From positions 1 through 41,251 of the forward strand of contig CAYUUQ010000001.1 of the NCBI GenBank assembly GCA_964447875.1: a stretch of 41,251 nt of DNA, written 5' to 3'. This DNA comes from an uncultured Methanosarcinales archaeon. GTDB lineage: Archaea > Nanobdellota > Nanobdellia > Woesearchaeales > DATDXC01. The translations under genes were made by a program, and so were the position numbers. Shown piece by piece: positions 5,613 to 39,529 of the stretch (within the stretch, counting starts at the first letter, position 1; each line of letters starts with the position of its first letter). Below the pieces are notes generated by a model that saw only the letters and a program-made list of their open reading frames with translations, had not been told where the DNA came from and made no database searches.

Positions 5613-5633
5613 TTTACTAATATTACTTATATT

Positions 5634-6413: not shown

Positions 6414-6417
6414 TAGA

Positions 6418-7329: not shown

Positions 7330-7342
7330 GTTATGATAAGTA

Positions 7343-18019: not shown

Positions 18020-18022
18020 AAA

Positions 18023-19039: not shown

Positions 19040-19049
19040 AATTATAAAA

Positions 19050-20501
19050 ATGCAATCTACCTCTTCAAACAAAGAAAAAAAGTATGATATTGTTTTAATT
19101 TCTATACAAAGAGATTCTTTGTCTACAAATAGTAGAAAAAAAGATGGATTAAACAGGTTGCCCCCATTGGGTTTAATGTATCTTGGTTCTTATCTCAATA
19201 AAATGGGTTTTAAAACAAAGATATTAGATATACCTGTAAATCGATTAGATGAAATTATAAATTTTGTTAAGAAAAGTATTACTAGAATTCTTGGATTTAG
19301 TATAACTACTTCAACTTTTAAAATAACAAAAAGATTTTTAGAAGAAAATAAACAAGTATTTAGTAATAATATTATAATTCTCGGTGGTGTCCATGCTAGT
19401 TCTATGCCTGAAACTTGCTTCAAAGAAATAGAAAAAATGGATTTTTTAGTTTATGGGGAAGGTGAAAAAATATTATATAATTTATTAAAAGAACTAAATA
19501 AAATTAATTGTGAAAAAAAAGATCTTCATAAAATAAAAAAAGAGTTGAATAGTATTAATGGACTTTGTTATAGGATTAATGATAAAATAAATATAAATAA
19601 AAAGCCTAACTTAATAGAAAATTTAGATGATATTCCTTTTCCAAAAAGGGATAGATTAAGTAAGTATATTCCGCCACCCAATCAATATAAGAAATTGCCT
19701 GTGGCCCATATAATGGCTAGCAGAGGTTGTTCTTATAATTGTTCTTATTGTTTAATAGGTAGTATGTATTCTTCTACTAGGTATAGATCAGTAGAAAATG
19801 TTATCAAAGAAATAAATTATCTTTTAGGGCTGGGTGTTAAAGAAATACATATTTGGGATGATTGTTTCACTTCTAATTATTTATGGGTTAAAAAATTTTG
19901 TGAGAGAATTATAAAAGAGAATATTAAATTTTCTTGGAGCTGTTTTTCGAGAGTTGATACCATCGATGAAAAACTGCTAAGGTTAATAAAATCTGCTGGG
20001 TGTTGGTGCATATTTTATGGAATCGAATCTGCTAACAAAGATCAATTAAAGCTTATTAATAAAAATATATGCTTAAAAAGAGCAGAAGATATAATAAAGA
20101 TAACTAAAAATTTAGGAATTTGTACTAGGGTTTCTTTTATGCTTGGTCTTCCTGGAGAAAACATAAAAAAAGCTAAGAAAACTATTAATTTTGCTATTAA
20201 ACTAAACCCAGATTATATCCAGTTCTGTTATACGACACCATTTCCTGGAACACAGTTATACAAAAATTATCACAAATATGGAACATTAGAATCTAATTTC
20301 TCAAATTATAGCTTATGGGATCCTGTTTTTATTCCATTTGGATATAAAACAAAAAAAGATCTAATAAAGATTAAAAAATATGCATTTAGAAGATTTTACT
20401 TAAGACCGAGTTATATTTTAAATCAATTAAAATCTATAAAATCCTATGAAGATTTTATTAGGTTTGTTAAAGGATGTTTTTTCTTAATTAATTATTTATA
20501 A
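19050..20501 (+). CDS. Class B (cobalamin-binding domain) radical SAM enzyme
   Basis: LPPLGLMYLGSYL, IIILGGVHAS and LVYGEGE (B12-domain pattern), then ASRGCSYNCSYC. Confidence 0.85.
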   Translation: MQSTSSNKEKKYDIVLISIQRDSLSTNSRKKDGLNRLPPLGLMYLGSYLNKMGFKTKILDIPVNRLDEIINFVKKSITRILGFSITTSTFKITKRFLEENKQVFSNNIIILGGVHASSMPETCFKEIEKMDFLVYGEGEKILYNLLKELNKINCEKKDLHKIKKELNSINGLCYRINDKININKKPNLIENLDDIPFPKRDRLSKYIPPPNQYKKLPVAHIMASRGCSYNCSYCLIGSMYSSTRYRSVENVIKEINYLLGLGVKEIHIWDDCFTSNYLWVKKFCERIIKENIKFSWSCFSRVDTIDEKLLRLIKSAGCWCIFYGIESANKDQLKLINKNICLKRAEDIIKITKNLGICTRVSFMLGLPGENIKKAKKTINFAIKLNPDYIQFCYTTPFPGTQLYKNYHKYGTLESNFSNYSLWDPVFIPFGYKTKKDLIKIKKYAFRRFYLRPSYILNQLKSIKSYEDFIRFVKGCFFLINYL

Positions 20502-24454: not shown

Positions 24455-25807
24455 TTGGAAAATCGAATAAATATAATAATATTGCAGTTTTCAGAAAATC
24501 TGAAGCATACCCCTCCCATTGGGTCTTTGTTATATTGGAAATGCTTTACTCAATGTAAAATATAAGGTAGGCATTATAGATTCTACATTAGAAGATTATA
24601 ATATAGCAAATATTGTAAACAAGATTATACGTGAAAAACCGAAGGTTATCGGTATAAGTGTTTCGAGTTTGTCTCTTCACTGGACATATATATTAATTCG
24701 GTTATTAAGAAAAAAGTGCAAAGCTAAAATTATTTTAGGTGGACCACACATAAGTTATGAACCATATTCATTTAATTACCTTAAAGCAGATTATGGTCTA
24801 AGGGGAGATAGTGAATTTGAATTTTTAAAACTTGTTGATCTTATACTTAGAAATAAAGGAGAAGAAGAAAATATTTCTGGTCTTTTAAGCACGAAAAAAG
24901 TAAAAAATAGTCAAATAAATATTATTGATGATCTTAATTCTATACCGTTACAATCTAGACAGTTATTGGATAATAATAAATATGTTTTCCCCCTTAATAC
25001 TGGAAAAGTTACTACAATAATCACTACAAGAGGTGCCCATTTAATTGTGTTTATTGTATATGTGGAAAAAGCAAATATAGAGAAAGATCTATAAAAAACA
25101 TAATTGAAGAATTGATGATTCTTAACAAAAGATTTGATTATATTGATTTTCAAGATGACTGTTTTACATTTAATAAAGAAAGAGTTAAAAAATTATGTTT
25201 TGAAATGATAAAGCAAAAATTCGTTTTCAAATGGGGTTGTGCAACAAGAATAACTCTTATTGATAAAAAATTATTAAAGATAATGAAAAAAGCTGGTTGT
25301 GAAAATATACGTTTTGGAATTGAATCTGGCTCTAAAAAAATTAGGTGTATGACTGGTAAATCTATTGATTACAATTTATTAGATAAAAACCTTAAGATGG
25401 TAAAAAAAGAGGGTATTCGTTGTGTTGGTTTTTTTATCTTGGGGCTTCCTAAAGAAAAGAAAAAAGATATTAAAATGACTTTATCCATTATAAAAAAATT
25501 AGATTTGGATTATATAGAAGTTGGTTTGCCCTTACCCATAGCTGGTTCTGATCTCTTTAAAATGATGATTAAAGATGGAAAAGTTAAAAAAAGTTATTGG
25601 AAAGATATTTGCCATGGAAAAAGACAGATTGAATATTACATATCCAATAATTTAAGTTTTAATTATCTTAAAAGTATGCAAAATAAGGCGTATCTAACAT
25701 TTTATTTTAGACCAAAGATAATAATCAGTAATTTATTGGAAATCAGATCTTTAAAAGATTTGATTCTTAAGTTTAGTATTGCATATGAAATTCTAAAGAA
25801 TAATTAG
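24455..25807 (+). pseudogene. Class B radical SAM gene disrupted by two frameshifts (ORF-track pieces 24519..25094 and 25112..25807)
   Basis: Frame A (24455-24523) reads (TTG)MENRINIIILQFSENLKHTPPIG. Frame B continues LCYIGNALL...ILGGPHIS...TTRG and stops at 25092-25094. Frame A resumes at 25034 with CPFNCVYC (CxxxCxxC) and runs uninterrupted into the 25112 ORF. The second junction splits TTRG|CPFNCVYC exactly. Confidence 0.75.
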
Positions 25808-25815
25808 CTCAAAGG

Positions 25816-27180
25816 TCAATCACAAATATAAATATCTTTTATTTCTGTTTCATTACAGTTATTCCTAAGCCAAGTAATTGTAGAATTATTGAAATAATAT
25901 AAATCATTATTTTTGATTTCACCATTATAAATAAACCAGTTCCTACCCTCTGCACTATTGCTTATTTTACCTGGATCTGAAAAATCATAAAAAGTAAAAT
26001 TCTTGTATTTTAGATTTGAATGATACTCTATTTCAAAAGCTTTGAAACCATCTACATATAACACATCTCCCTCTTTAAAGTTGGATTCAATATAGTTTAT
26101 ATAACTTATATCGTGTTTTTTAGCATAAACATCAGATATTCCAATTGTACTGAGTATTATAATAATAAGGATAATTACATGTTTAATATTAACAGAAATA
26201 GTATGAAGATATTTAGAGAAATAAAGAAGATAAAATGGTAATAGGAATATTATTTGATAATGTCTTATATTTATAAAAAAAGATAAGATAAAAAATAAGA
26301 TAGGCAAAAAGATAAAAAGTAGATTGGATAGTAAATTTTTATCTTTAGTTCGTATGTAAATAAAATAGAATAAAGCAAGCATAAGGACCCCGAACCATTT
26401 TATGCCGCCTATAACAATATGATAAAATAAATTGAATATTGTGTTTGTGTTTGGTGGAAATAACATATCGTGCCAAGGTTCATTATAGGGAAAATCGAAA
26501 AGACCATATTTTATTGTTAATAGTAATTGAGGTATAAAGGTACAACCGACTATCAAGAAAATAAAAGAAACTTTTTTAATCTTGCACCTACAATGGGGAT
26601 TAAACAATAGATATAAAAACTCAACGAAAAAAAGAAACATACTATAAAAATGTGTTTGTGCTAGGAAAAAAGAAGATGCTAATAAAAATATCCAATTTTT
26701 TTTGGTTCCATCTTTTAAGAATCTTATAAAGGTATAAAAATTGATTATTGATAAAAAAATAAAAAGTGAATATTTGTCTACTATACGAGAATAATCTATC
26801 AATATAGGGCATATTGCAAGAAAAAAAGCACTTAAATTTGCGACTTTTTGATTAAACATAAACTTAGCAAGTTTATGAATCATAAAAATCGATAACAAAC
26901 CGAAGATTATGGGTAAGATTCTCGAAGAAACTGAACCTATCCCAAAAGATATGTTCCAAAAATGTAATATAAAAAACCAAAGTGGTGGATGAGGGACACC
27001 TGTTCTTATAAAATTATAACTTATTGGCCGGGAAGATACATCCAAAATACTTAATTCTTCTTCGTTCAAATTCTTTTCTGATAAATTAAAAAAAGCCAAA
27101 CTTAAAAAGATGAGCATACTGAAAATAATAAATAAGTATTTCTTAAAAATTCTGAATTTATATTGTTTAAGATTTAACAT
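25816..27180 (-). CDS. Polytopic membrane protein, GT-C fold glycosyltransferase-like (PMT_2/ArnT-like)
   Basis: 454 aa. An acidic first loop (SEKNLNEEELSILD) is followed by GVPHPPLWFF and many TM helices. The start overlaps the upstream rSAM stop by 7 nt. Confidence 0.6.
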   Translation of the reverse strand: MLNLKQYKFRIFKKYLFIIFSMLIFLSLAFFNLSEKNLNEEELSILDVSSRPISYNFIRTGVPHPPLWFFILHFWNISFGIGSVSSRILPIIFGLLSIFMIHKLAKFMFNQKVANLSAFFLAICPILIDYSRIVDKYSLFIFLSIINFYTFIRFLKDGTKKNWIFLLASSFFLAQTHFYSMFLFFVEFLYLLFNPHCRCKIKKVSFIFLIVGCTFIPQLLLTIKYGLFDFPYNEPWHDMLFPPNTNTIFNLFYHIVIGGIKWFGVLMLALFYFIYIRTKDKNLLSNLLFIFLPILFFILSFFINIRHYQIIFLLPFYLLYFSKYLHTISVNIKHVIILIIIILSTIGISDVYAKKHDISYINYIESNFKEGDVLYVDGFKAFEIEYHSNLKYKNFTFYDFSDPGKISNSAEGRNWFIYNGEIKNNDLYYFNNSTITWLRNNCNETEIKDIYICD

Positions 27181-28607
27181 CTATACTTATCCCCTATTTT
27201 TTCTTCAAAAATCTTTTTCAAATAAAAAAAATCACTCAAAAGAGTTTTATGTTTAAGGCCATATGATGTGCGTTTTAGTATAAATGGCAGTCTAAAATAA
27301 AATTCCTTATAGAATAGGTTATAATAATAAAAAATCTTTTCGGTTTTAAGATTTGGATGATTATAAATAGGTACCCGATTATTATGAAATTTATATAAAT
27401 TCCAGTCTTCTGTCAAAATTCTTTTTTCTTTTTTCCACCTATACCAATATTCCGTACCAGGATAGGGAATAAATATGGAAACTCTTGCAAAAGTTGGATC
27501 TAGTTTCTTTACAAAGGAGATAGTTTGCTTCATCGTTTCTTCGGTTTCTTCTGGATTTCCAAAAACACATAATGCATAAGTATCTATATCATATTTATTG
27601 GCTTTTTTAAAGGCTTTAATTGTCTGATTGATTTTAATATTCTTGTTTAATGAGTTAATAATCTTTTGTGAACCTGATTCCACACCAAAAGAAATACGAT
27701 AACAGCCTGCTTTTTTAGCATAATTGAGAAATTCATCATCAACACGATCAACCCGTATACCATTCTCCAGATTTAATGAAATATTCAGTTTTTGCTTTTT
27801 TATTTGGTAGCATATTCCTTTGGCTCTTCTTAAATTCTGGGTAAATGCATCATCAGTTAAGTGGATATCATTATAACCTAAGTCTTTTAGGTAATTTATT
27901 TCTTTTATTACGCGCGATATAGATTTTATTCTAAAAGTTGTTTCAAATTTCTGATTACAATATATGCACCTTTGATAATAAGGGCAACCTCTGCTTGTTT
28001 CAATGAACGCTATTGGGAAGTCTTTATGGAATGTTTTATAATATCTTGATTTTCTAATCATCTTTTTATCGATTAGATCCCATGATGGGATAGGTAAAGT
28101 ATCCAGATCTAAAATAACATTTCTATGTCCTGTTTTTATAATCTTTTTTCCTTTTTTATAATATATACCATTTATTTTATTTAATTTATTTCCCAAGATA
28201 ATCTCTTTTAGTGTATTGTCTCCTTCTCCAACAACAACTATATCCAATAGGGTTTGTTTTAAACAATATTCTGGTAGAGCAGAAACATGTGATCCACCAC
28301 CAATTAATAAGATATGTTTGTTAAATTTCTTTATTTTGGCAATTATTTTCTGAGCATTAAAAAAATTGGGTGTTTTAAAGGTTACCCCCACATGGGTTGG
28401 ATTGAACGACTGCAAGGTTTTGAATAGTTTCAAATTTGGATTTTCATATAGATTTAAGTCTAAGATTTTAACTTCATGACCAATTGTGCATATTGGTGCT
28501 GCTAAAACTGGCAAAGTTAACCCAGGAAAGTAATCTCCTTTAGCTAAAGACCCAGTGTAAGCATTTTCTGCCCCCCCTACTTCAACTAATAATATTTTTG
28601 ATTTCAT
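27174..28607 (-). CDS. Class B (cobalamin-binding domain) radical SAM enzyme with variant Cx5Cx2C motif
   Basis: LLIGGGSHVSALPE and VVVGEGDNT (B12-domain pattern). The cluster motif SRGCPYYQRCIYC was verified on the DNA at 27957-27986 as C-x5-C-x2-C. Confidence 0.8.
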   Translation of the reverse strand: MKSKILLVEVGGAENAYTGSLAKGDYFPGLTLPVLAAPICTIGHEVKILDLNLYENPNLKLFKTLQSFNPTHVGVTFKTPNFFNAQKIIAKIKKFNKHILLIGGGSHVSALPEYCLKQTLLDIVVVGEGDNTLKEIILGNKLNKINGIYYKKGKKIIKTGHRNVILDLDTLPIPSWDLIDKKMIRKSRYYKTFHKDFPIAFIETSRGCPYYQRCIYCNQKFETTFRIKSISRVIKEINYLKDLGYNDIHLTDDAFTQNLRRAKGICYQIKKQKLNISLNLENGIRVDRVDDEFLNYAKKAGCYRISFGVESGSQKIINSLNKNIKINQTIKAFKKANKYDIDTYALCVFGNPEETEETMKQTISFVKKLDPTFARVSIFIPYPGTEYWYRWKKEKRILTEDWNLYKFHNNRVPIYNHPNLKTEKIFYYYNLFYKEFYFRLPFILKRTSYGLKHKTLLSDFFYLKKIFEEKIGDKYRC

Positions 28608-28611
28608 TTTA

Positions 28612-29808
28612 TTATATGTTAATTAAATATTTAATAAAGGATTTTAGTAGCATAAATAAATCTAAAACGTTATTGTTTTTTATTGTTTTTGTCATCCATT
28701 TTAACCTTAAATAGAATCTTTTTGTCATTAGCTTTGATTCTGCCATACCACATATTTTGGAATTTTTATAATCCGTAAAGGGCACTATAGATACATAATC
28801 TGGATCCAACCCTTTGAGAATAGAATAATCATAATTTATGTCTTCTTTTTTTTGACTCGAAAACCCAACTATCATATAAGCTAATGTTTTTATTTGATAT
28901 TTTCTGCATAATCTAAAAGCATTTTTTATACTTAAAATATTTTGATTTTTATTCATTTTAGACAGTATGTCCTTAGAAAAAGACTCTACACCTAATTGAA
29001 TAAGTTTACAACCTGAATCGTTTAATTTCCTAAGTATATCTTTATCTAGATGATCGCATCTTGTTTGAATGAAATATCTGAATTTTGGATTGAAAGAGAG
29101 TAATAGATTACAGATTTTCAAAGCAAATTTTTTGTCTATTAAAAAATCTAAGTCAATAAACATGATGTTTTTTATTCCGAGCTTATGTAAACTTAATAAT
29201 TCTTTTTTTACTTGATATATTGATTTTTTTATATATTTCGGATACATTAGTTTATTACAGAATTTGCATTTGTATGGGCAGCCCCTAGTTGTTTCAATTA
29301 AGAAAAATTTTCCAGAAAATAATGGAAAGGTATAGTTGGTGTTCTTTACTAAAGAATAATCTGGAAGGAGAAGATTATTAATTTCGGTTCCGACCCGTTC
29401 TTTTCGTTTCAATATGAACTTATTTATAAGATTATAAACATTTATTTCTGGATTTGATTTGATGAAGAATTCATTTTTAGCATGTTTTTTGGGATTATGT
29501 GGCCCAATAAAGAAAAAATAACTATCTGGATTATTTTTCCTCAAGATATTTTTGAATTCTAAAAATGAGAAATCTATTTGAGGGCATTGCCATCTATCAA
29601 GAGAGGCTGAAGATATTATAAATATGTCTGATTTCAAACTATTCCAAAAATTTGACCTTGCTTTTATTTTCTTTATATTAGCATCTATTAGTGAAATATA
29701 AAAGAACCCTGCCTTTTTAAGTAAAGAAGAAACGTATAATAAACTTAAAGGAGGGTAATCTTTATTAATTTGACCAATATTAGAATAATCTATAAAAGGA
29801 TTGATCAA
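28612..29808 (-). CDS. Class B (cobalamin-binding domain) radical SAM enzyme
   Basis: YPPLSLLYVSSLL in the N-terminal domain, then TTRGCPYKCKFC. TTG start (no ATG is available before an upstream in-frame TAG at 29833-29835). Confidence 0.8.
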   Translation of the reverse strand: MINPFIDYSNIGQINKDYPPLSLLYVSSLLKKAGFFYISLIDANIKKIKARSNFWNSLKSDIFIISSASLDRWQCPQIDFSFLEFKNILRKNNPDSYFFFIGPHNPKKHAKNEFFIKSNPEINVYNLINKFILKRKERVGTEINNLLLPDYSLVKNTNYTFPLFSGKFFLIETTRGCPYKCKFCNKLMYPKYIKKSIYQVKKELLSLHKLGIKNIMFIDLDFLIDKKFALKICNLLLSFNPKFRYFIQTRCDHLDKDILRKLNDSGCKLIQLGVESFSKDILSKMNKNQNILSIKNAFRLCRKYQIKTLAYMIVGFSSQKKEDINYDYSILKGLDPDYVSIVPFTDYKNSKICGMAESKLMTKRFYLRLKWMTKTIKNNNVLDLFMLLKSFIKYLINI

Positions 29809-29844
29809 TGTTACTTTTTTTTGGTTATATTTCTATATCCCCTT

Positions 29845-31494
29845 TTAAACATTTTTCACCAAATAATTACCAATTGCTAAATAATCCAATTTAGCTTCTT
29901 TAAAAGCCGCTATAGCGTCATTAGGGGTACAAACAATGGGTTCTTCGTGTAGATTGAAGATTGTAATTAATATTTAACATTTTCCAGTGATCTTCCTAAA
30001 TTCATCTAAAATCTTATAATATGGTGGATTATCTTCCTTTGACAGTATTTGTGGTCTTGCGGTTCCATCTATATGAGTTACTCCCGGACATTCTTCTTTC
30101 ATTTTTGGCTTACAATCGAAAGATATGTTCATATATTTTGAAGTTAATTTAGCTTTTTTTAGGTCGTAATAATATTTGTCAGCAAATTTTTTGATAGTTG
30201 TTGGTGCAAATGGCATAAAATTGGTTCTTTTTAATTTCTTATTTAACCATATTCTTACAGTATTGTCATCTGGCAGGCAGAGTATAGATCTATTTCCTAA
30301 TGCTCTAGGACCATACTCTAATGCTCCATTAAATCTTGCTATAATTTTTCCTTTTGACAGTAATTCTGCTACTTGATATTCGATATTGGTTAATTTCTCA
30401 TAAAATATCCCTTTTTTATCTAATGTCTTCTTAATCTGCTCGTCTGAAAAATCTGGACCTAGGTAGATTGTGTCCATTGGTGCATGAGGTATTCTTATTC
30501 TTTTATTCAACCAACATAAACCAGCACCCATACTTAAACCGACATCATTCATAGCTGGATGGATGTATACTTGTTTGACTTTATCTAATTGAGATAATCT
30601 TTGATTTAGTTTAACGTTGGAAAATACCCCACCAGATAAAGAAAGATTATTTGATCCATATTCGTCTAAAAGATTAGAGGTATAATCACAAAAAATCTTC
30701 TCGAATAATAACTGTAATGTGTGTGCTACATCTTCTTTCTTAAATGTAGCTAAGAATGATTTTAATTTAGGATAATTATTAAAAAAAGTTCTAGAAAGAA
30801 GGAAGGTGTTTTGTTTATTATCTAGATAAAATATTCTTTTTAATTTTTTAAATAATCTCTTATTGGGTTTACCATAGGCAGCTAGACCTGTTACCTTACC
30901 TACCTCTTTCATTGGATCGAAACCCAATAATTCAGCAATTCCTCCATAAAATAGTCCAGGCGAATTAAGTGGTGACGAAGTTTTAATAATTTTATAGGTA
31001 TTATTTTGACATAATGATGTTGTTGAAGAATGATAATCCCCGACTGCGTCGGCTGTTAAAGTTATTGCTTTATTAAATCCAGAAGTAAAGTATGCATTAC
31101 ATAAGTGGCATTCGTGATGGGGCAATGTTTCTTTAAAAGAGATTGGTATTTTATTTAAAAGTGTATTAACTTCCCTAATTTTATTATTATTAAATAATAT
31201 TTCACTATATTTTACTCTCATATATTCTAAAAAAGTAAAACACGAATCTTTTTTATTTTTTAAGAGCATATTAACAAATCTATGAGGATTATTTTGACTA
31301 GAATATATTGTTCTATGAATATTATATCTTTCCTTTAAAAGTTTAATAGATAAAGAAGGCTTACCTGAGTCCAGCTTCTTTCTAGACAAATTTTCATTTG
31401 CTAAAGAAAATAATATTTTGCCATTAGAATCAAATAATGTGGAGGAGTTATTTTGGCCATCATTTATACTTAATATGTATTTTTTAAAATTCAT
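29845..31494 (-). pseudogene. Carbamoyltransferase (NodU/CmcH family) with an in-frame TAA at 29974-29976
   Basis: LPHHECHLCNAYF, LEYGPRALGNRSILC and FMPFAPT. After ...KITGKC-TAA the same frame continues ILITIFNLHEEPIVCTPNDAIAAFKEAKLDYLAIGNYLVKNV-TAA. This aligns with the C-terminus of the intact paralogue (VLNTSFNIHGYPLVMSPENAIE...GKLVMGNFLVEIK). Confidence 0.85.
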
Positions 31495-31518
31495 TTTATA
31501 ACTTTCAAATAGTTTTAT

Positions 31519-31527
31519 TTTATATAA
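31519..31527 (-). promoter_or_regulatory. TATA-like box (TTATATAAA on minus strand) upstream of the carbamoyltransferase start at 31494
   Basis: Centre lies about 29 nt upstream of the ATG at 31494, inside an 84-nt gap in an otherwise tightly packed minus-strand block. Confidence 0.25.
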
Positions 31528-31578
31528 TTTTCGAAGACACCTTTGCTTAATGAGATATAACCTTCAATAACATCTTAG

Positions 31579-32280
31579 TTAACTATACCTGATTCTAAAG
31601 CGCCAAAGTGAAAGTAATTGTTCGTATGATGTGCTAAAAATATTAAGGCTTGATTTTCCTTTTTCTTCCCAACATAAAGGTAATTCCTTTATGGTGTATT
31701 TCCTCTTTCTTGCCTCTAACATAAACTCAAGATCCCACGGCCAACCATTACTTTTAATTTCTCCATTTATACTAATAAAAATGTCCTTTCTAAATGCCTT
31801 AAGTCCTACATCAGTATCATGAATTCTTAGTTTTGGAAAAATAATCCTGACTAAAGTAATATATATTTTACTTAGCATAGATCTATAAAATTTCCTTTTT
31901 ATTCTTGAATTCGGCATATATCTAGATGCAATAACAATATCATATTTCTTAAGGGTGTGTATCATTTTTTCTATTATCCTTAAATCTATAGTTAAAGGAA
32001 TATCTACGTCCATGAATAGTACCCTAGTTCCTTTAATTGAACTACAGGTTCTTTTTAATGCGTGACCCCTTCCCTTGTTTTTATTATTATTAATAAATTT
32101 TATATTGTTATTTATGTTAGAAAGTTTTTTTATGATATCAAAAGACTTATCTGTTGAACCATCATTTGATAATATTATTTCATTTTTTAAGTTTAATCTC
32201 TTCATGTAATTTACTAAAGTAAGTATATTTTTCTCTAATTTATCTTCCTCATTATAAACAGGAATTACAATCGAAATCAT
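31579..32280 (-). CDS. GT2 family glycosyltransferase, polyprenyl-phosphate sugar synthase-like (DPM1/ArnC-like)
   Basis: ISIVIPVYNEE, LSNDGSTDKS and FMDVDIP. I place the start at the ATG at 32280, which forms an ATGA overlap with the SDR stop and gives the family-typical N-terminus MISIVIPVYNEE. The ORF track extends to 32346. Confidence 0.8.
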   Translation of the reverse strand: MISIVIPVYNEEDKLEKNILTLVNYMKRLNLKNEIILSNDGSTDKSFDIIKKLSNINNNIKFINNNKNKGRGHALKRTCSSIKGTRVLFMDVDIPLTIDLRIIEKMIHTLKKYDIVIASRYMPNSRIKRKFYRSMLSKIYITLVRIIFPKLRIHDTDVGLKAFRKDIFISINGEIKSNGWPWDLEFMLEARKRKYTIKELPLCWEEKGKSSLNIFSTSYEQLLSLWRFRIRYS

Positions 32281-33176
32281 TTTGTATTTTTGTACCAATT
32301 GATATATTTTTTCATTCCTTCTAAGAAAGTTGTTTTTGGTTGCCAATTAAGGTCTATTTTTGCTTTTTCTGAAGATACTGTTTTTCCTTTATAGTCTCCT
32401 TCTCTAGCTTCTTTATGTATTATTTCTACGTCGCCCATGTTAGATTTTATTGTTTCTGCCACTTGTTTTATCGATATTGGTTCAGTTCCATCGAGATTAT
32501 AGATTTTGTTTTTAGCTAACTCATTTAGGGCTAAAACATTTCCTTCTGCTAAATCTTCAACATAAATAAAGTTTCTATATTGTTTTCCGCTGCCATTAAT
32601 TGTTAATGGTTCTTTATTTATTGCCTTTCTTACAAAAATAGGTATAACTGTGGTTTCCCTTGCTCTTGGGCCATAAGGAATACCATATCTTAAAATTGTA
32701 AAATCTTGATCGTATAATTCTTTATAATCATGACAAAATAACTCTCCTGCTATTTTAGTTGAAGTATATATATGTCCTGCTCCAGGCATATGGAAAGGAC
32801 TTTTTTCATCTACGTTTTCTTCTTTTGAACCTGCATAAACCCATACAGTACTTGCAAATATTACTCTTTTAATATTATTTACTCTTGCGGCTTCTAGAAT
32901 ATTTATTGTTCCGGTACTGTTTAAATTAATACATTTTATTGGATCTTTGTATGCTTTGTTTACATTAGAAACAGCTGCTAAGTGATATATAACATCAATA
33001 TTCTTTGTTGCCTCTTTTAATTTATTAAAATCTAGAATATCTCCATTAATATGATTAAGCGGTTGCTTATATGGTTCTGCTAAGTCAAAAGTGGTAACAT
33101 TATGGTTTTCTTCCGCTAGTTTATCTACTACATGGCTTCCTATAAATCCATTTCCACCGGTTACAAGTATATTCAT
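32277..33176 (-). CDS. Extended SDR NAD-dependent sugar-nucleotide epimerase/dehydratase/decarboxylase
   Basis: ILVTGGNGFIGSH (GxxGxxG) and YTSTK (YxxxK). The 299 aa length is typical of UDP-sugar 4-epimerase or UDP-GlcA decarboxylase-like enzymes. Confidence 0.9.
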   Translation of the reverse strand: MNILVTGGNGFIGSHVVDKLAEENHNVTTFDLAEPYKQPLNHINGDILDFNKLKEATKNIDVIYHLAAVSNVNKAYKDPIKCINLNSTGTINILEAARVNNIKRVIFASTVWVYAGSKEENVDEKSPFHMPGAGHIYTSTKIAGELFCHDYKELYDQDFTILRYGIPYGPRARETTVIPIFVRKAINKEPLTINGSGKQYRNFIYVEDLAEGNVLALNELAKNKIYNLDGTEPISIKQVAETIKSNMGDVEIIHKEAREGDYKGKTVSSEKAKIDLNWQPKTTFLEGMKKYINWYKNTK

Positions 33177-34282
33177 TTTAATTCCACCTTTAATGATTTA
33201 ATAACATAATTTATTTCTTCTTCACCCATGCTTGGGTAGATAGGTAAACAAATATGATCGCCACAGTGTTGTTCTGCTGATTGGAAATCTCCTTCCTTAT
33301 AACCTAGATCATCAAAAATTGGTTGTAAATGACATGGTTTTTCATATACTTCGCCAGTTAAGGATATGTTATATTTTTGTTTCATTTTATCTTTCAGTTC
33401 TTTTCTTTTTTTATTTGTTAAAAAGCAAATATATTTGTAATAATTGGATTTATTATTATCATTTATTTTTAATAATTTTAGATTTTGCGTATTTGCTATT
33501 TTTTCATCATATATTTTTGCAATGTCTCTTCTTTCTTTTATTAGATTATCCAATTTACCTAGTTGAGAAAGCCCAACTATGGCGTTTAGTTCACTCATAC
33601 GCCAGTTATATCCTAATTTTGTGTGCGTATTTCCTGGACCAGACATACCTTGATTCCTATAAATCAAAGAATTTTCATATAGCTCTTTGTTGTTTGTTAA
33701 AACAACGCCCCCTTCTGCAGAAGTCATTACTTTTGTTGCAAAAAATGAAAAAGCTGCTGCATCACCAAAAGAACCCGCTTTTTTATCATCTAAAGTAGAA
33801 CCTTGAGCATGAGCAGCATCTTCAATTAGAAAAATTCCTTTATTTTCACATAATTCTTTTATTTGATTTATTTCTGGTGTTACTATACCCCCAATATGGA
33901 CAACAACTACTGCTTTTGTTTTATCTGTTATTTGTTGTTTTATTGTTTTTTCATTAACGCACAAGCTTTTGTCACAGTCTGCAAACTTAACTTTATTTCC
34001 TGAGTGTAAAACTGCTGCAGGTGTTGCAAAAAATGTATTGGTAGGTACGATTATTTCTTCATTTTTGAGGTTTAATGACCTAAATATTATCTCTAAAGCA
34101 GATGTTCCGCTGTTTGTTGCGGTCCCGTATTTGGTGTTAGTGTAAGAAGAAAATTTATCTTCAAATTCTCTGACATATTTACCTAATGATAAAAATCCTG
34201 ATGAGAGAACTTCATCTATTTTATCTTTTATATCTTTTTTTTCTTCTTCTGTGAATATTATTTTTACTGGAGGTATTTTCAT
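33173..34282 (-). CDS. DegT/DnrJ/EryC1/StrS family PLP-dependent sugar aminotransferase (ArnB-like)
   Basis: NSGTSALEI, EDAAHAQGS and SFFATKVMTSAEGG (PLP lysine context). ATGA overlap with the SDR gene. Confidence 0.9.
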   Translation of the reverse strand: MKIPPVKIIFTEEEKKDIKDKIDEVLSSGFLSLGKYVREFEDKFSSYTNTKYGTATNSGTSALEIIFRSLNLKNEEIIVPTNTFFATPAAVLHSGNKVKFADCDKSLCVNEKTIKQQITDKTKAVVVVHIGGIVTPEINQIKELCENKGIFLIEDAAHAQGSTLDDKKAGSFGDAAAFSFFATKVMTSAEGGVVLTNNKELYENSLIYRNQGMSGPGNTHTKLGYNWRMSELNAIVGLSQLGKLDNLIKERRDIAKIYDEKIANTQNLKLLKINDNNKSNYYKYICFLTNKKRKELKDKMKQKYNISLTGEVYEKPCHLQPIFDDLGYKEGDFQSAEQHCGDHICLPIYPSMGEEEINYVIKSLKVELK

Positions 34283-34369
34283 TAAAGAAAGAAAGAAATA
34301 GGGTTACTTATAAATTTATCTGATAGGATAAATATCTATTATAGAATATAGAAAAGGTTATATAAAAAG

Positions 34370-36163
34370 ATGAGTATGGATTATAAGAAGAAAGTGGTTA
34401 AAAAGAATTTAGGAAATTATTTGAGTTTGACTTTTATATTAGTTATATCATTCTTATTCACAATTCCTTTATTAGAAAATATAAACAATGATATGTATGA
34501 TGAGGATTGGTTTCAATTTTCATCGCATAATCTGAATTCTAGAAAATCTATAATTGAATATAAACAACTTCCTTTGTGGTCCCCTTTCTTGGGGGGTGGA
34601 TTTCCAATAATTGGACATCCCCAAGATATGACACTTAGTCCATTATTTCTTTTCATATTAATATTTGGTGAAACAGTTGGATTAAAACTGATAATAATTC
34701 TTATTTACTTGTCAAGTGCGTTAGGAACATATCTTTTCAGTAAAAAGGTATTGTGCTTCTCTCAATTAACAAGTTCATTTGTTGCTCTCTCTTTTGTTTT
34801 AAGTAGTTATTTACCATATCAACTTTCTGATGGTAACTTTCATTGTGAACCATTTCTTTTATTGTTGCCCCTATTGCTTTACTTATATGAAAAATCAATT
34901 AATAACAAAAAATTTATTTTTTTCAGTGCATTTTTATTGGCTATAATGTTATTTTCTGGGGCTTTTGCTTTTTTATACATATTTCTTGCTTTCTTCATGT
35001 ACTGTCTTTTCAGTCAAATATTTTGTGCAAAAAAAAAGTACTTCAAAACGTTTTGTATTATCTTTATTTCCTTATTATTTATTGGATCAATAAAGATTCT
35101 GCCTACTTTGGAAATATTATCAAATAAAGGCGCCTGTATGAGTGACCCTTTAGATTCAAATCCCCATGCAAGTACGATTTGCAAAGAGAATATAAACACG
35201 GTGCCCCCCAACTACCTAAGTTATTCTAATCTTGTAAACTCTTATTTATCAAAAAGTTTTCCTTATCATTCTACTACTTACACCGGAATAATTCCAATAA
35301 CATTTTTTATTTTAGGATTATTTTTTATAAGAAAGAATATAATAAAATTTCTATTGTTATTTTTGTTATTTTTGTTATTACTTCTAGGAAATAATTTTGT
35401 GATCAATATTCATCATCTTTTTTCATATATCCCATTATATAATTTAGTAATTAAATTGAACAAATATATTCCCCCAATAATATTATTTTTCTTTTGTATT
35501 ATTTCAGGAAATTTTTTAAATAAAATATATTTAAAAATAAAAAATAAAAAATTATTGATTTCATTAATAACCTTACTAGTTTTATCTTCTATATTTTGGC
35601 AGTTTTATTCAAATATTGGGACACAATCTAATCTTTTTATATACCCTAAACAAAAAGTAAACCTTAAAAATAATTTTTATCAAACACGTATAATTACTAC
35701 TTCAAGAGTAAACATAGAAACATCAAAAAATCAATATTATAATATTAGAAAAGGTATTGGAACAATTAATTGGTATAGTAGCATAATATTAGATGAAAAC
35801 ACGATACCCAAATATTTTGTTTATAAAAATAGTAGTTTAATGGAAAACCAGAAATATTTAGGTGAAGTTTACTTTATAAATAGAAAAAATAAGGCGTATA
35901 TGAAATATTTTAGTCCGAATAAGATGATTATTGATGTAAAAATATCAAAACCCGATACATTGATTATAAATCAAAATTATAATAAATATTGGAAAACCGA
36001 TTGTGGAAAATTGTTTGATAAGGGGGGATTATTAGCAATTGAAATGGATACGCAATGTAAATCAGTGAAAATATGGTTTACCCCTGTATTGTTTTTTATA
36101 GGGTTGGGAATCAGCCTAGTTACTTTAGTTATATACATTATTTTCATTATTAAAAAAGAATAA
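34370..36163 (+). CDS. Polytopic membrane protein, GT-C-like (YfhO-like topology) with extracytoplasmic domain and C-terminal TM anchor
   Basis: 597 aa. Acidic first loop NDMYDEDWFQF, then LPLWSPFLGGGFPIIGHPQ and about 12 helices. A soluble domain of about 170 aa precedes a final helix VLFFIGLGISLVTLVIYIIFII. The family call is by pattern only. Confidence 0.45.
   Translation: MSMDYKKKVVKKNLGNYLSLTFILVISFLFTIPLLENINNDMYDEDWFQFSSHNLNSRKSIIEYKQLPLWSPFLGGGFPIIGHPQDMTLSPLFLFILIFGETVGLKLIIILIYLSSALGTYLFSKKVLCFSQLTSSFVALSFVLSSYLPYQLSDGNFHCEPFLLLLPLLLYLYEKSINNKKFIFFSAFLLAIMLFSGAFAFLYIFLAFFMYCLFSQIFCAKKKYFKTFCIIFISLLFIGSIKILPTLEILSNKGACMSDPLDSNPHASTICKENINTVPPNYLSYSNLVNSYLSKSFPYHSTTYTGIIPITFFILGLFFIRKNIIKFLLLFLLFLLLLLGNNFVINIHHLFSYIPLYNLVIKLNKYIPPIILFFFCIISGNFLNKIYLKIKNKKLLISLITLLVLSSIFWQFYSNIGTQSNLFIYPKQKVNLKNNFYQTRIITTSRVNIETSKNQYYNIRKGIGTINWYSSIILDENTIPKYFVYKNSSLMENQKYLGEVYFINRKNKAYMKYFSPNKMIIDVKISKPDTLIINQNYNKYWKTDCGKLFDKGGLLAIEMDTQCKSVKIWFTPVLFFIGLGISLVTLVIYIIFIIKKE
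35353..35379 (+). repeat. In-frame 9-bp tandem repeat (TTGTTATTT x2 + TTGTTATTA) inside the membrane protein gene
   Basis: Read directly at 35353-35361, 35362-35370 and 35371-35379. It encodes LLF-LLF-LLL within a TM helix. Confidence 0.85.
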
Positions 36164-36165
36164 AC

Positions 36166-36918
36166 TCAATACAAAGATAAGTTGGGTTTAGCTTTTTGAT
36201 ATTCTTTATATGCTTTTATCCATGTCTTTGACATCATTTCTTTAGTTATCCTCTTATCATTATTAAAGTTTCTTTTAAAATGCCCGCAAAAACGACATAG
36301 TAATCTTAATTGACTTTTTAATGTTTGTTGATTTACTAATGAAAGTCTCTTTATAGCTATATCAAAACCAAATACTCTATCAAGGCTAGCCCCTGCACCA
36401 CATGGATAATAACCATATCTAGTCAGCCCCAATCCACATTCTTGAGTTGTCTTACAACCTCTAGTGAAATCTGCGTTCTTATATTCTTTTATATCAATTG
36501 GTGATATGTTATAACTAAAAAACTTATTTTTAATAGAAGTTTTATATGAATTTCTAATATTCACCCAACTTGGTAATTTGGATAAAATTTTATTAACTTT
36601 TCTACCATACCCATTTGTTACAAGTTCTATAATACAATTCTGTTTTATGTCCCTATATCTTTTTAAGATCCTTAGGATATCAAAAATATGTGGATGTAAA
36701 GTTGGTTCGCCACCAAGTAATCCTATATATTTCCAATTCCAATTTTATTCGATAGATTCATTTACGAACTTAATAATTTGGTTGAGCGTCATCTGTTCAT
36801 TAGATGCGGCTTGTCTAACTGATCTATTACAATTAAAACAACATAAATTGCAAAAGGTAGTTATTTCAATTTCTATCTTTTTCATATTTGGAATCCATGA
36901 TCTTTTCTTATTAGACAT
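36166..36918 (-). pseudogene. Small radical SAM gene with an in-frame TAA at 36745-36747
   Basis: Hand translation from the ATG at 36918 gives MSNKKRSWIPNMKKIEIEITTFCNLCCFNCNR...FVNESIE-TAA-NWNWKYIGLLGGEPTLHPH... This runs in the same frame into the ORF-track piece 36166..36564. The stop separates the CxxxCxxC motif from the GGEP motif. Confidence 0.8.
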
Positions 36919-36961: not shown

Positions 36962-38674
36962 TCATTTTATTGAATTTTTACTTATTTCAAAAAAATCTTT
37001 ACACATATCGCAATACTCAAAATTTTTACTCTTAACCTTTCTTCTTACAGAAATGGCTTCACTAGAATAATATATATCATGCAGATTTTTCTCAAATATA
37101 TTTCCTATTTTAGCTTCAAGAATAGTTAATGTTCCACAACATGGAAAAACATCACCATTTGGCATTATATCAAGGGTATAATTAGGAACAACACACGGAA
37201 CTTTTTTGTGGAATATTTTACCATATTTTCCTTCTGAAAAATTCTCTAATTCTTCTAAAAATTCATTATTTTTTGATTTATTTATAATAAAAATTTTTGA
37301 TTTCCCAACTAAATCAAAAAAGAAAGGATTGAATGAAATGTTTATTTTTAATTTTTCACTTAGCATGTTAGGAATAATTTTTAAATAAAATTCTTTCATT
37401 TGAACTTTATTCAGCCTTAAATTTGATTTGGATATTACCTTATTTTTTGAATTTTGACTTAAGCAATCAACTTGAGAAAAATAAAGATTATCAACCCCTA
37501 ATCTATCCAAAATTATCGGAAGATCGGATATATGATCATAATTTATTTTTGTAATAACGCAATTTACACCAACTCTTATTTCAGGATTCGATATCTTTAT
37601 TTTTTGTATAAACTCAGTTATTTTATCGAAACTATCGACTCCTGTTATTTTTTTTTGAATATCTTTATCATCTGAGTGTAATGTTAACATAACTTCATCT
37701 AGTAACTTTGAATATTTTATTACTTCGTTATTATTTAAAACTGCATTGGTGGCATATTCTATTTTAAATCCTAATAATTTAGAAAATTCAAAAACTTCTA
37801 TTAGGTTATGATATAAACTAGCTTCTCCACCTGTTATCTTGATATGATTAAAATCTAACACAAATGCTTCAAATAAAATGTTTTTTACTTTTTCAAGAGG
37901 TAAACTAGATTTATTTTCTTGATTCCACCAATCACATATTATACATCTTGAATTACATTTGTCTGTTAACCTTAGGTAAATTGATTTTGTTGGATAATCT
38001 GAAATTGGTTTTGCTATTGAAATAAACTTACTCTTACCATCAAACAACCTAACATCAACCTCTTGTTTTAATTCCCTTAAATTTCTTATACCCTTAACTG
38101 TTTGTTCAAAACTTCCTGGAACTTTAGTTATCTTATCATGTTCTTCAGAGGTTTTACCAAATATATTAATTATAAACTTATTTGCACCAGCATCGATTAT
38201 TTTTTTACAATATTCTAAGTTTGAAAATGCTCTTCCGTTTGATTCTATTGTTATGTATTTATAATCTAACTGTTTTGCATAATCTATTAAAACATCTAAA
38301 TTATCTCTTAATGTTGATTCTCCACCTGTGAAAATTACTTCTTCTCTGAAATAGGATTCTTTGTTATCATTTTTCCATTCTTGAAGTTGATTAAAAACAA
38401 CTTCTTTTCTTTTTCTATCTCCGCCCTTACCTATCTGAAAACAAAAAGAACAATTATTATTGCATTGATGAAAAATTGGTATCTTTAATGGTGTTTTTAG
38501 TTCTTCAAGTATTAATTTAGGAGTGAGATTAGAATTAAATGTCATTTCTAGTTCTGAAAAATTGTTTTTCATCATTGATAATTTTTCTTTTGAATTATTT
38601 AATTCTTTTATTAGATTGGTTAATTGAACAATATCTAGATTGGCTATTGATTTAGAAACGCCTTTATCTACCAA
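36962..38674 (-). CDS. Tandem di-domain radical SAM protein (two complete rSAM cores)
   Basis: Core 1 has CNNNCSFC (38441-38464, verified on DNA) plus FTGGES. Core 2 has CNSRCIIC (37934-37957, verified) plus ITGGEA, then CVVPNYTLDIMPNGDVFPCC and CDMC. The ORF-track start is a TTG. The first ATGs are at codons 34/35. The frame is continuous with the upstream GT-B gene. Confidence 0.85.
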   Translation of the reverse strand: MVDKGVSKSIANLDIVQLTNLIKELNNSKEKLSMMKNNFSELEMTFNSNLTPKLILEELKTPLKIPIFHQCNNNCSFCFQIGKGGDRKRKEVVFNQLQEWKNDNKESYFREEVIFTGGESTLRDNLDVLIDYAKQLDYKYITIESNGRAFSNLEYCKKIIDAGANKFIINIFGKTSEEHDKITKVPGSFEQTVKGIRNLRELKQEVDVRLFDGKSKFISIAKPISDYPTKSIYLRLTDKCNSRCIICDWWNQENKSSLPLEKVKNILFEAFVLDFNHIKITGGEASLYHNLIEVFEFSKLLGFKIEYATNAVLNNNEVIKYSKLLDEVMLTLHSDDKDIQKKITGVDSFDKITEFIQKIKISNPEIRVGVNCVITKINYDHISDLPIILDRLGVDNLYFSQVDCLSQNSKNKVISKSNLRLNKVQMKEFYLKIIPNMLSEKLKINISFNPFFFDLVGKSKIFIINKSKNNEFLEELENFSEGKYGKIFHKKVPCVVPNYTLDIMPNGDVFPCCGTLTILEAKIGNIFEKNLHDIYYSSEAISVRRKVKSKNFEYCDMCKDFFEISKNSIK

Positions 38675-38704
38675 TAGATTGGTTCTTTCTAATTGATCAT
38701 CATA

Positions 38705-39529
38705 TTATTTAACCAAAGCGTAAAGTAAAGATGTGGTTTTTGTATAAATAAAATCATTTATAGTGTTATACCCTACTTGAGAGATTACTAAATCTGCGCA
38801 ATTCATTAATTCTAAAAAATTCTGTTCAAATTTAACAACTGAATCATTAGGTATTTTATTATATGGTCCAGAAATTATTATAAAATTAATGTTTTCGTTT
38901 GTTAGTTTTTCTTTTAATTTTAGAATTAAATCAAAATATTCTTTTGATTTTTTATCTCCTCCGCCGCCTGCAGATGCTAAGATAACTAATTGATTGTTAA
39001 TTATTTTATATTTTTTAGAAACATCTGAATTAATCTTTAATTTTCTAACTAATGGCCCTATAAATTTTATTTTTTCTGAATTTGATAATGATTCTAATAT
39101 TTTTGGTGGTACAGAATATCCTTTAAACTCATCAATAGAATGGGGCAATAAAATTAAATCAATATGTTCGTAATCTGAACTTTTTATGAATTTATCGATA
39201 AGATTGTTTTTATATTTTCTAAAAACAAATATATGTTTTAAAGGGAAATTAAATGTTGTACCTAAAATACCTGTATTGTAACTAGCATCCCAAATTATAG
39301 CGTTTGGTTTATAATCTGTAATTATATTATATATTTCTTCATAATAGTTCTTTTTCTCAATCTTAAAATAGGTATATCCTTTTTGATCTAACCAATAATT
39401 GAATTTAGAATTAGTCATAAATGCTATATCTAAGTGAGGCATTGCTTTTTTTAACATGTCTGCAATTATTATGCTTCTATTTAAATGACCTAGTCCTTCA
39501 CCATTTACAACATAAAATAATATTTTCAT
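38705..39529 (-). CDS. GT-B fold glycosyltransferase (GT28/GT1, MurG/MJ1255-like), apparently truncated by a TAA at 38705-38707
   Basis: MKILFYVVNGEGLGHLNRS (G-x-GH-x-x-R), LASAGGGGDK and ADLVISQVGYNT. The ORF ends about 55 aa short of the family norm. Beyond the TAA, YDDQLERTNLLVDKGVSKSIANLDIVQLTNLIKEL continues the GT28-type C-terminal pattern in the same frame. Confidence 0.65.
   Translation of the reverse strand: MKILFYVVNGEGLGHLNRSIIIADMLKKAMPHLDIAFMTNSKFNYWLDQKGYTYFKIEKKNYYEEIYNIITDYKPNAIIWDASYNTGILGTTFNFPLKHIFVFRKYKNNLIDKFIKSSDYEHIDLILLPHSIDEFKGYSVPPKILESLSNSEKIKFIGPLVRKLKINSDVSKKYKIINNQLVILASAGGGGDKKSKEYFDLILKLKEKLTNENINFIIISGPYNKIPNDSVVKFEQNFLELMNCADLVISQVGYNTINDFIYTKTTSLLYALVK

Follow-up and report, generated by a model that had tools for sequence, protein, structure and literature searches.

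The window analysed here is the whole contig of a metagenome-assembled genome (MAG), 41,251 bp long with a GC content of about 26%, and we focus on seven adjoining open reading frames (ORFs) that occupy positions 25,816-34,282, all on the minus strand. In 5' to 3' order on that strand, they encode a DegT-family aminotransferase (DegT), a short-chain dehydrogenase/reductase (SDR), a family 2 glycosyltransferase (GT2), a carbamoyltransferase, two radical S-adenosylmethionine (SAM) enzymes (rSAM1 and rSAM2) and a GT-C glycosyltransferase. The seven genes and their Pfam families had been proposed from the letters and their translations before any database search (hereafter the sequence-only reading), and a Pfam search confirmed them:

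33173-34282, minus strand: DegT-family pyridoxal phosphate (PLP) sugar aminotransferase of 369 amino acids (aa); Pfam DegT_DnrJ_EryC1 at 1e-104; PLP lysine K184 in SFFATK.
32277-33176, minus strand: extended SDR of 299 aa; Pfam Epimerase at 4e-55; motifs GGNGFIG, S109-T-V-W-V-Y and Y137xxxK.
31579-32280, minus strand: small soluble GT2 of 233 aa; Pfam Glycos_transf_2 at 2e-22; gene callers start it at the ATG at 32280.
29845-31494, minus strand: O-carbamoyltransferase of the NodU/CmcH/TobZ type; Pfam Carbam_trans_N and Carbam_trans_C, TobZ in the PDB; interrupted in this contig.
28612-29808, minus strand: rSAM1, AprD4-like radical SAM enzyme of 398 aa from a TTG start; Pfam Radical_SAM; CPYKCKFC at 177.
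27174-28607, minus strand: rSAM2, class B radical SAM enzyme of 477 aa; Pfam B12-binding (54.3 bits for a cut-off of 32.1) and Radical_SAM.
25816-27180, minus strand: GT-C of the PMT_2 family, 454 aa; Pfam PMT_2 at 9e-16 (58.9 bits for a cut-off of 26.1).

The overlaps of ATGA, ATGA and 7 nt announced by the sequence-only reading are present in the DNA: DegT and SDR overlap by 4 nt, as do SDR and GT2 (ATGA in both cases), and rSAM2 and the GT-C share 7 nt. The remaining junctions are gaps of 84 nt between the GT2 and the carbamoyltransferase, 36 nt between the latter and rSAM1, and 4 nt between rSAM1 and rSAM2. A terminator scan found no minus-strand terminator-like site within the seven-gene block; the sigma-70 promoter and terminator scan is uninformative in DNA of 26% GC, where it returned 62 sites for 64.7 expected. 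Scans for tRNA genes and Rfam families gave no match in the whole window.

All seven genes recur in a relative known from L093 and L094, which come from two different samples and have a GC content of 34%. In L093 the order is DegT, a CE4 deacetylase, SDR, GT2, carbamoyltransferase, the B12-binding radical SAM enzyme (on the opposite strand), the rSAM1-like enzyme and the GT-C, the last overlapping its preceding gene as it does in the window. Each of the L093 proteins has its best match in the corresponding protein of the operon, and not in a paralog from elsewhere in the window, with identities of 39-61% (rSAM1 61%, SDR 60%, GT2 55%, GT-C 54%, DegT 53%, rSAM2 42% and carbamoyltransferase 39%); the GT-C ortholog (P0131) is the closest homolog of the protein studied here. 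Because all seven families recur together in this relative, each matching its operon counterpart best, the gene set is real and conserved and does not result from a chance arrangement. The sequence-only reading had named a search of related genomes for the same seven-gene order as a check; in this relative the seven genes stay together, with one of them inverted and one deacetylase gene added. A looser set, comprising a carbamoyltransferase, a GT2, a DegT, an rSAM1-like gene and fusion proteins, is found in L099, and the combination of a carbamoyltransferase with tandem PMT_2 GT-Cs and class B radical SAM enzymes recurs in distant lineages (L009 and L011). As background we used 80 generic carbamoyltransferase loci listed from a scan of the contigs of GTDB genomes, a set that does not include the genome of the window itself; 10 of these listed loci have a class B radical SAM gene nearby, so that the background is low.

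For the GT2, the best match in the PDB is the DPMS of Pyrococcus (5mlz, 1e-18 over residues 2-227, i.e., the whole catalytic domain), followed by GtrB (5ekp) and then by ArnC (9hwj, 9bhc and 8vxh; 5e-9 for ArnC), and PpgS appears among its NCBIfam matches. The DxD motif is DVD at residues 91-93. ArnC has C-terminal transmembrane (TM) helices. A sequence scan of the 233 residues of the GT2 revealed no TM or hydrophobic segment and no QxxRW or [QR]xxR[WF] motif, and the protein reaches 55.4 bits against the ArnC equivalog model, for a cut-off of 529. From its sequence, the GT2 is predicted to be a polyprenyl-phosphate sugar synthase of the DPMS/GtrB/ArnC/PpgS type and not a processive enzyme. 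The polyprenyl-phosphate sugar synthase-like GT2 of the sequence-only reading is thus borne out by the DPMS, GtrB and ArnC matches and by the DxD motif, and the processive synthase, which that reading had named as one of the outcomes that would refute its proposal, does not fit a protein without a TM segment or QxxRW motif.

The GT-C gave no match when its sequence was searched against the PDB, and its fold was studied on an AlphaFold model that presents about 11 TM helices and a small C-terminal alpha/beta domain (predicted local distance difference test, pLDDT, of 79.7; predicted TM-score, pTM, of 0.82). With Foldseek, this model produced 22 matches at E<=1e-3, every one of them to a GT-C fold, including STT3 (2e-6), ArnT (5f15, 7e-6, TM-scores of 0.59/0.51), ALG12, AglB, PglB and Pmt4, and all significant structural matches use donors linked to a polyprenyl phosphate or diphosphate. 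The model thus indicates that the last gene encodes a genuine GT-C fold. Of the ArnT-like GT-C put forward by the sequence-only reading the fold stands, and ArnT itself is not distinguished from STT3 or ALG12, which score as well against the model. Residue E42 is nearly invariant; it belongs to the first external loop, the place of the DE motif in PMT_2 proteins. The 90%-identity cluster of the GT-C also holds P0129, a 627-aa member encoded by an ENA contig of 3.4 kb, perhaps as a read-through or a fusion with the upstream rSAM2, whose gene overlaps that of the GT-C by 7 nt.

The DegT aminotransferase falls below all NCBIfam cut-offs, with PseC as its best model (264 bits) and ArnB at 154 bits for a cut-off of 631. 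Its best PDB match is QdtB (3frk, 5e-53), and sugar and inositol transaminases are found among its solved relatives. Judged by these scores, PseC and QdtB are nearer relatives of the enzyme than ArnB, with which it appears to share only membership of the DegT superfamily. A 159-aa ORF of low complexity lies antisense to the DegT gene (33319-33798, plus strand) and is probably spurious, as may be expected in AT-rich DNA.

For the SDR, the PDB matches are nearly equal between a UDP-hexose 4-epimerase (4zrm, 132 bits) and human UXS1 (128 bits), and MoeE5 is also among them; the score against the ArnA model is 52.6 bits, for a cut-off of 777. A residue alignment shows that the YxxxK motif is kept and that S-T-V-W stands where UXS and ArnA have T-S-E and the 4,6-dehydratases T-D-E; the S-T-V-W motif is identical in the L093 ortholog. 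Of the catalytic residues, the Ser/Thr-Tyr-Lys set alone is retained. Since the protein is devoid of the acid/base residues of the 4,6-dehydratases and of the UXS/ArnA decarboxylases, it looks like an epimerase or a ketoreductase/oxidase and not like an ArnA-type decarboxylase.

The closest solved structure to the carbamoyltransferase is TobZ (3ven, 2e-53 in a sequence search of the PDB), followed by NovN and GdmN. The HHxxH metal site is present as HHECH at 126, as are the Kae1-like and YrdC-like domains. TobZ O-carbamoylates a sugar from carbamoyl phosphate and ATP through a carbamoyl-AMP intermediate (PMC13584161). The sequence-only reading had treated 29845-31494 as one open frame, which proved incorrect: an in-frame TAA at 29974-29976 ends the ORF after 506 aa, and the 42 codons past this stop still match the end of Carbam_trans_C (4e-10). 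An intact protein of 549 aa is encoded by near-identical contigs of two independent assemblies, L001 (JGI 3300009008, a 122.7-kb contig) and L002 (ENA ERZ23498639). In a comparison that spanned positions 25,001-36,500, the seven-gene region differs from these sibling contigs at five places only, which form two lesions:

29960-29975, no strand assigned: patch of 4 substitutions within 16 nt, peculiar to this contig in the comparison with the sibling assemblies.
29814-29822, no strand assigned: poly-A/T run with a 1-nt indel (length of 8 nt in this contig, 9 nt in the siblings).

The first lesion turns GKC-SLLNTSFN into GKC-stop-ILITIFN, so that the NTSFN motif, intact in L001 and L002, reads ITIFN after a stop in the window; N510 and S512, both lost, are invariant across 16 aligned members of the carbamoyltransferase family. 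The second one removes a base from the poly-A run and frameshifts the first 15 codons of rSAM1, which is 413 aa long in L001, where it starts 8 nt inside the carbamoyltransferase gene, and is reduced here to the 398 aa that follow the TTG. Two further contigs, L003 and L004, stop near position 30018 of the window, about 40 nt before the patch according to BLAST coordinates. Similar damage is found to the right of the operon: one change at 36746 breaks up the gene of a 250-aa radical SAM protein, of which a 132-aa ORF is left (36166-36564), and a GT28-rSAM-rSAM-SPASM fusion of 855 aa falls into ORFs 36962-38674 and 38705-39529 through 11 changes at 38690-38762 and another at 38906; the JGI contig has both genes whole. 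Of the 17 bases that differ across the window, 16 are A or T, and G>T or C>A accounts for 10 of the 17 changes. We read these patches as low-quality sequence or micro-heterogeneity of this MAG, outside the design of the system; the broken carbamoyltransferase and the short form of rSAM1 reflect either variation between strains or an artefact of assembly. A reassignment of the stop codon was also considered for the in-frame TAA and rejected, since every other gene ends normally and the siblings have TCA (Ser) at this position.

The sequence-only reading had described both radical SAM enzymes as class B, i.e., B12-binding, and this holds for rSAM2, whose B12-binding domain scores above threshold. 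For rSAM1 and its close orthologs, Pfam detects Radical_SAM only, with no B12-binding match even at E<=1; distant homologs at about 30% identity do have this domain. The protein carries the canonical CxxxCxxC cluster motif, and its best PDB match by sequence is AprD4 (6fd2, 8e-16). Its structural model (pLDDT of 89.6) also has AprD4 as best Foldseek match, in a full-length alignment (2e-17, TM-scores of 0.72/0.63), followed by TsrM, MgmA, CysS and TokK, and shows a degenerate, Rossmann-like N-terminal domain. By sequence and predicted fold, rSAM1 is thus AprD4-like. AprD4 is a radical SAM 1,2-diol dehydratase that acts on an aminoglycoside sugar and possesses a Rossmann-like N-terminal domain yet does not bind cobalamin (PMC12931638), so that the two B12-dependent radical steps postulated by the sequence-only reading are unsupported as far as rSAM1 is concerned. 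For rSAM2, the nearest NCBIfam model is HpnJ, then BchE and PhpK; as its HpnJ score is 193.3 bits for a cut-off of 577.6, rSAM2 is not an HpnJ ortholog. AprD4 is the closest solved structure for both radical SAM enzymes.

The clade of rSAM1 is rare, with 84 of 1.84 billion representatives at E<=1e-30 and three clusters at least 41% identical to it. Its distant relatives, mostly from Omnitrophota and Planctomycetota, tend to occur with a small GT2: a homolog of the latter lies nearby in 45 of 80 metagenome loci (L101-L180), and in 31 of the 80 a GT2 of the DPMS type follows directly downstream on the same strand, within 300 nt. These distant genes encode proteins of about 432 aa with a recognisable B12 domain, and their pairing with a GT2 occurs without a carbamoyltransferase nearby (for example, L100 10001-11997). 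We also noted rSAM1-like domains, sometimes in 3-5 copies, inside proteins of 900-2,600 aa (P0240, P0255, P0287, P0301, P0305, P0311, P0320 and others), which recall the giant multi-enzyme proteins reported for Omnitrophota (bioRxiv 10.64898/2026.06.07.730766).

Two intergenic regions of the block are of interest for its transcription and for the identity of the host:

34283-34369, no strand assigned: divergent promoter region between DegT and a plus-strand membrane protein gene (34370-36163).
31495-31578, minus strand: gap of 84 nt between genes; a TATA-like box lies about 32-34 nt before the ATG of the carbamoyltransferase.

In the divergent region, TATA-like boxes are present about 32 nt upstream of both ATGs, and DegT is not preceded by a Shine-Dalgarno sequence. 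The 84-nt gap is a possible internal promoter, and because of this TATA-like box and of the inversion of rSAM2 in the relative, a single 8.5-kb transcript is not established. Of 17 genes that lead a transcription unit in the window, 10 have a TATA-like hexamer whose first base lies 24-36 nt before the ATG, for a background probability of 0.12-0.20; since the set of motifs was picked after inspection of the sequences, this result is no more than supportive. Most of these leading genes are devoid of a Shine-Dalgarno sequence, and the internal genes carry sites of the GGTG or GAGG type. Such upstream regions follow an archaeal pattern with leaderless first genes and suggest an archaeal host. Named homologs come from Omnitrophota, Nanoarchaeota, Woesearchaeota and Pacearchaeota; the sibling contigs, walked past both ends of the window, hold more radical SAM and GT-C genes but neither ribosomal genes nor other markers. 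A DPANN-like archaeon of anoxic marine water is the probable host, and this makes lipid A an unlikely acceptor.

Taken together, these data lead us to propose, with a probability of roughly 0.55, that the seven genes form a conserved set for carrier-lipid glycosylation with unusual tailoring of the sugar. A keto sugar would be generated from a nucleotide sugar or from a lipid-linked form, either through oxidation by the SDR or through dehydration of a vicinal diol by rSAM1, in the manner of AprD4, and DegT would aminate it. The SDR could alternatively be a ketoreductase similar to AprD3, which reduces the keto group following AprD4. The small GT2 would load the sugar on polyprenyl (probably dolichyl) phosphate at the cytoplasmic face, and the carbamoyltransferase would O-carbamoylate a hydroxyl using carbamoyl phosphate and ATP via carbamoyl-AMP, as TobZ does. 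rSAM2 would perform a cobalamin-assisted step, which may be a C-methylation, as for GenK and MoeK5, or a rearrangement of the HpnJ kind. After flipping, the GT-C would move the finished sugar to an extracytoplasmic acceptor, be it a surface protein, a glycan or a lipid.

Several observations weigh against this proposal. Two of the seven genes are damaged in this contig. The SDR is without the residues that are normally required for the release of a keto sugar, and the origin of the DegT substrate is therefore conjectural. The motif of rSAM2, CPYYQRCIYC (residues 208-217), is a non-canonical Cx5Cx2C; its L093 ortholog and its paralogs in the window have the canonical CxxxCxxC, relative to which two residues are inserted. 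The GT-C is devoid of the Asp of the DE motif and reads NLNEEEL, versus SLWxDEA in distant homologs. No flippase gene is present within the operon, the candidate being an AglD2/MprF-like gene at 6418-7329. Strict co-transcription is not a conserved trait, given the inverted rSAM2 and the additional deacetylase gene of the relative. Finally, the full seven-gene set was found in 0 of the 80 listed generic carbamoyltransferase loci, which restricts the combination to one lineage.

The main rival is a pathway for a membrane-lipid headgroup, in the style of HpnI/HpnK/HpnJ, of calditol synthase (Cds) or of GpgSDF, for which we see a small but real chance. The GT2 would here glycosylate a lipid directly, the sugar would be aminated or deacetylated, carbamoylated and remodelled by radical chemistry (e.g., ring contraction to an aminocyclitol), a modified glycolipid would result, and the GT-C would have a separate role. 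HpnI, HpnK and HpnJ act on lipid-linked glucosamine and Cds makes calditol from a lipid-linked hexose (PMC13459092), which provides a precedent where a glycosyltransferase and a deacetylase act before a radical SAM enzyme remodels the lipid-linked (amino) sugar. HpnJ is moreover the curated family nearest to rSAM2, the cluster of the relative holds a CE4 deacetylase, and the window contains at 4582-7329 a trio of GT2, CE4 deacetylase and MprF-like flippase that resembles gpgSDF/hexSDF. However, the closest solved relatives of the GT2 are polyprenyl-phosphate sugar synthases, the GT-C belongs to the conserved set, with a gene that overlaps its predecessor in both the window and L093, the curated HpnJ cut-off is missed widely, and GpgS belongs to GT4 and not to GT2. 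The present cluster also differs from the hopanoid one by having no hopanoid genes, and the end product there is a lipid and not a GT-C donor. That the locus is simply decaying and non-functional in this genome, with a carbamoyltransferase pseudogene and a truncated rSAM1, is improbable. This explanation draws on the in-frame TAA, on the loss of two invariant residues, on the frameshift and on the two other genes broken at similar patches; against it, the differences are tightly clustered in otherwise identical DNA, their base pattern points to low-quality sequence more than to mutation, the genes are whole in two independent assemblies, and some 40 nt away from the patch two contigs come to an end.

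The resemblance to Arn (ArnBCADTEF), on which the sequence-only reading had built its proposal, concerns the general logic, which is reasonable, and the four superfamilies DegT, SDR, GT2 and GT-C gathered in one cluster, with ArnC and ArnT among the sequence and structure matches. A true Arn-type pathway, which would place a 4-amino pentose or hexose on undecaprenyl phosphate and transfer it to lipid A or lipopolysaccharide, would nevertheless be very surprising: the scores stay far below the cut-offs of all Arn equivalog models, the SDR is without the T-S-E triad and hence the decarboxylase residues, DegT is nearer to QdtB and PseC, and the promoters are of archaeal type, as the host probably is. 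Pfam detects no formyltransferase domain in the seven ORFs, the operon of the window contains no deacetylase that could stand for ArnD, and gaps of at most 84 nt leave no room for ArnE or ArnF. The one-to-one mapping on Arn enzymes therefore fails; profile and structure checks upheld the GT2 subfamily and the GT-C fold and gave no support to the ArnB, ArnA and ArnC assignments. Judging from these profiles and residues, the cluster is not an Arn pathway and shares with it the general outline alone.

A secondary-metabolite cluster for an aminoglycoside-like or moenomycin-like phosphoglycolipid is an explanation that we regard as highly improbable; in its favour, TobZ, AprD4, sugar and inositol transaminases and MoeE5 are the nearest enzymes of solved structure. 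In aminoglycoside pathways, the partner of a radical SAM dehydratase or dehydrogenase is a reductase or a transaminase (AprD4 with AprD3, BtrN with BtrS/BtrR), a pairing that matches the gene content of the operon and the DegT-rSAM fusion of L099. Moenomycin biosynthesis involves an SDR epimerase, the carbamoyltransferase MoeM5 and the B12 radical SAM enzyme MoeK5 acting on a lipid-phosphate sugar. MoeK5 is listed as a B12 radical SAM methyltransferase (PMC12931638). The set of tailoring enzymes resembles aminoglycoside and moenomycin chemistry, whereas the identities to the antibiotic enzymes are only 13-18% in structural alignments, the aminoglycoside substrates are free pseudo-oligosaccharides handled without a GT-C, and moenomycin is an actinomycete antibiotic built on phosphoglycerate-moenocinol with neither a GT2/GT-C pair nor an aminotransferase. 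In addition, the cluster has no cyclitol synthase, resistance or export genes, and its GT-C, with at least 6 further GT-C genes around it, is typical of envelope glycosylation.

Our preferred reading, carrier-lipid glycosylation with sugar tailoring, has its nearest parallels in three-component systems made of a polyprenyl-phosphate sugar synthase GT2, a flippase and a GT-C, such as Dpm1/Ppm1-PMT, GtrB/GtrA/GtrX and PpgS-Rv3779. The operon likewise pairs a small GT2 of the DPMS type with a GT-C, here of the PMT_2 family, in one cluster; the PpgS system also carries an amino sugar. The operon differs from these systems by having no flippase gene and by the addition of DegT, SDR, the carbamoyltransferase and two radical SAM enzymes, for none of which our literature searches turned up a report in such systems. 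In the literature we found no description of a GT2/GT-C carrier-lipid system with carbamoyl and radical SAM tailoring, and nothing relevant on a carbamoyltransferase cluster in DPANN archaea. Loading by a GT2 and transfer outside the cell by a GT-C are well understood for simple sugars; here, a conserved set would combine such glycosylation with two radical SAM enzymes and a carbamoyltransferase for sugars, whose nearest solved relatives tailor the sugars of antibiotics, for the most part aminoglycosides. If true, radical deoxygenation, methylation or rearrangement together with carbamoylation would decorate the surfaces of uncultivated anaerobes, and some of the very many class B-like radical SAM genes that are still unassigned would gain a function. 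The rSAM1-like/GT2 gene pair and the GT-rSAM and DegT-rSAM fusions provide concrete proteins for expression.

The operon lies within an island of more than 41 kb, which fills the whole contig, continues past its ends and comprises about 15 radical SAM genes (class B and SPASM) together with those of no fewer than 7 GT-C-like membrane proteins. Arguably, this wider radical SAM/GT-C island and its fusion proteins are more noteworthy than the operon alone. Four of these fusions, carried by relatives, join radical SAM domains physically to sugar enzymes: rSAM+GT2 (625 aa, L097 12701-14578), GT28+rSAM+rSAM+SPASM (855 aa, L097 7390-9957), GT2+rSAM+SPASM (666 aa, L095 2416-4416) and DegT+rSAM+SPASM (654 aa, L099 16965-18929). 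They constitute the strongest sign, though an indirect one, that the radical SAM enzymes of the island act on sugars. We also noted in L099 (18926-20833) a 635-aa fusion of a radical SAM domain with a TehB-like methyltransferase.

A broader scenario can be sketched for the island, speculative as it is. The operon may be one module of a combinatorial diversification of surface glycans in DPANN-like archaea, in which radical SAM enzymes would replace the NAD-dependent dehydratases, an idea to which we attach little confidence. With similar doubt, an AprD4-like, cobalamin-independent dehydratase and DegT might produce deoxy-amino sugars anaerobically on dolichyl phosphate. The later steps are no firmer: the B12 radical SAM enzyme might C-methylate or ring-contract the sugar, and the GT-Cs might display carbamoylated aminoglycoside-like (pseudo)sugars. 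It is likewise only conceivable that the GT-rSAM and DegT-rSAM fusions are hard-wired versions of this chemistry.

Outside the operon, the following genes of the window are related to its components (the strand is indicated where it is given):

4582-5313, strand not given: second small GT2, paralogous module.
5634-6413, strand not given: CE4 deacetylase, paralogous module.
6418-7329, minus strand: flippase-like protein of the MprF/AglD2 type; passes TIGR00374, nearest to "GlcN-PG flippase".
7343-9058, strand not given: second carbamoyltransferase, intact, 571 aa, with a GT-C directly next to it.
9055-10845, strand not given: GT-C, 4-nt overlap with the second carbamoyltransferase.
10838-12295, strand not given: class B radical SAM enzyme, 8-nt overlap with the GT-C.
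24519-25094 and 25112-25807, plus strand: split class B radical SAM enzyme, with a B12-binding ORF and a radical SAM ORF; split in L001 and L002 too.

The genes at 4582-12295 form a second, paralogous module, whose trio of GT2, CE4 deacetylase and flippase-like protein is analogous to the aminoglycolipid operons gpgSDF and hexSDF. As a model for the trio at 4.6-7.3 kb, gpgSDF was retained as an analogy only, because GpgS is a GT4 enzyme. A likeness of the CE4 deacetylases to ArnD was rejected on profile score, the CE4 of the relative reaching 23.8 bits for an ArnD cut-off of 382. Since the split of the class B radical SAM gene at 24519-25807 is common to all assemblies, we take the latter for a true pseudogene or for an enzyme made of two pieces.

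Among the SPASM radical SAM and GT-C genes of the window, 12482-13225 (minus strand) encodes a QueC-like PP-loop ATPase with a weak Pfam match, and 14308-14970 (plus strand) a putative SAM-dependent methyltransferase, so named on reading the sequence alone. Past the right end of the window, in the 122.7-kb contig, L097 carries at 14904-19522 an HxsD-family gene flanked by radical SAM genes, as in a His-Xaa-Ser-type system, and the same stretch, just outside the island, includes a faint match to an archaeal prepilin peptidase.

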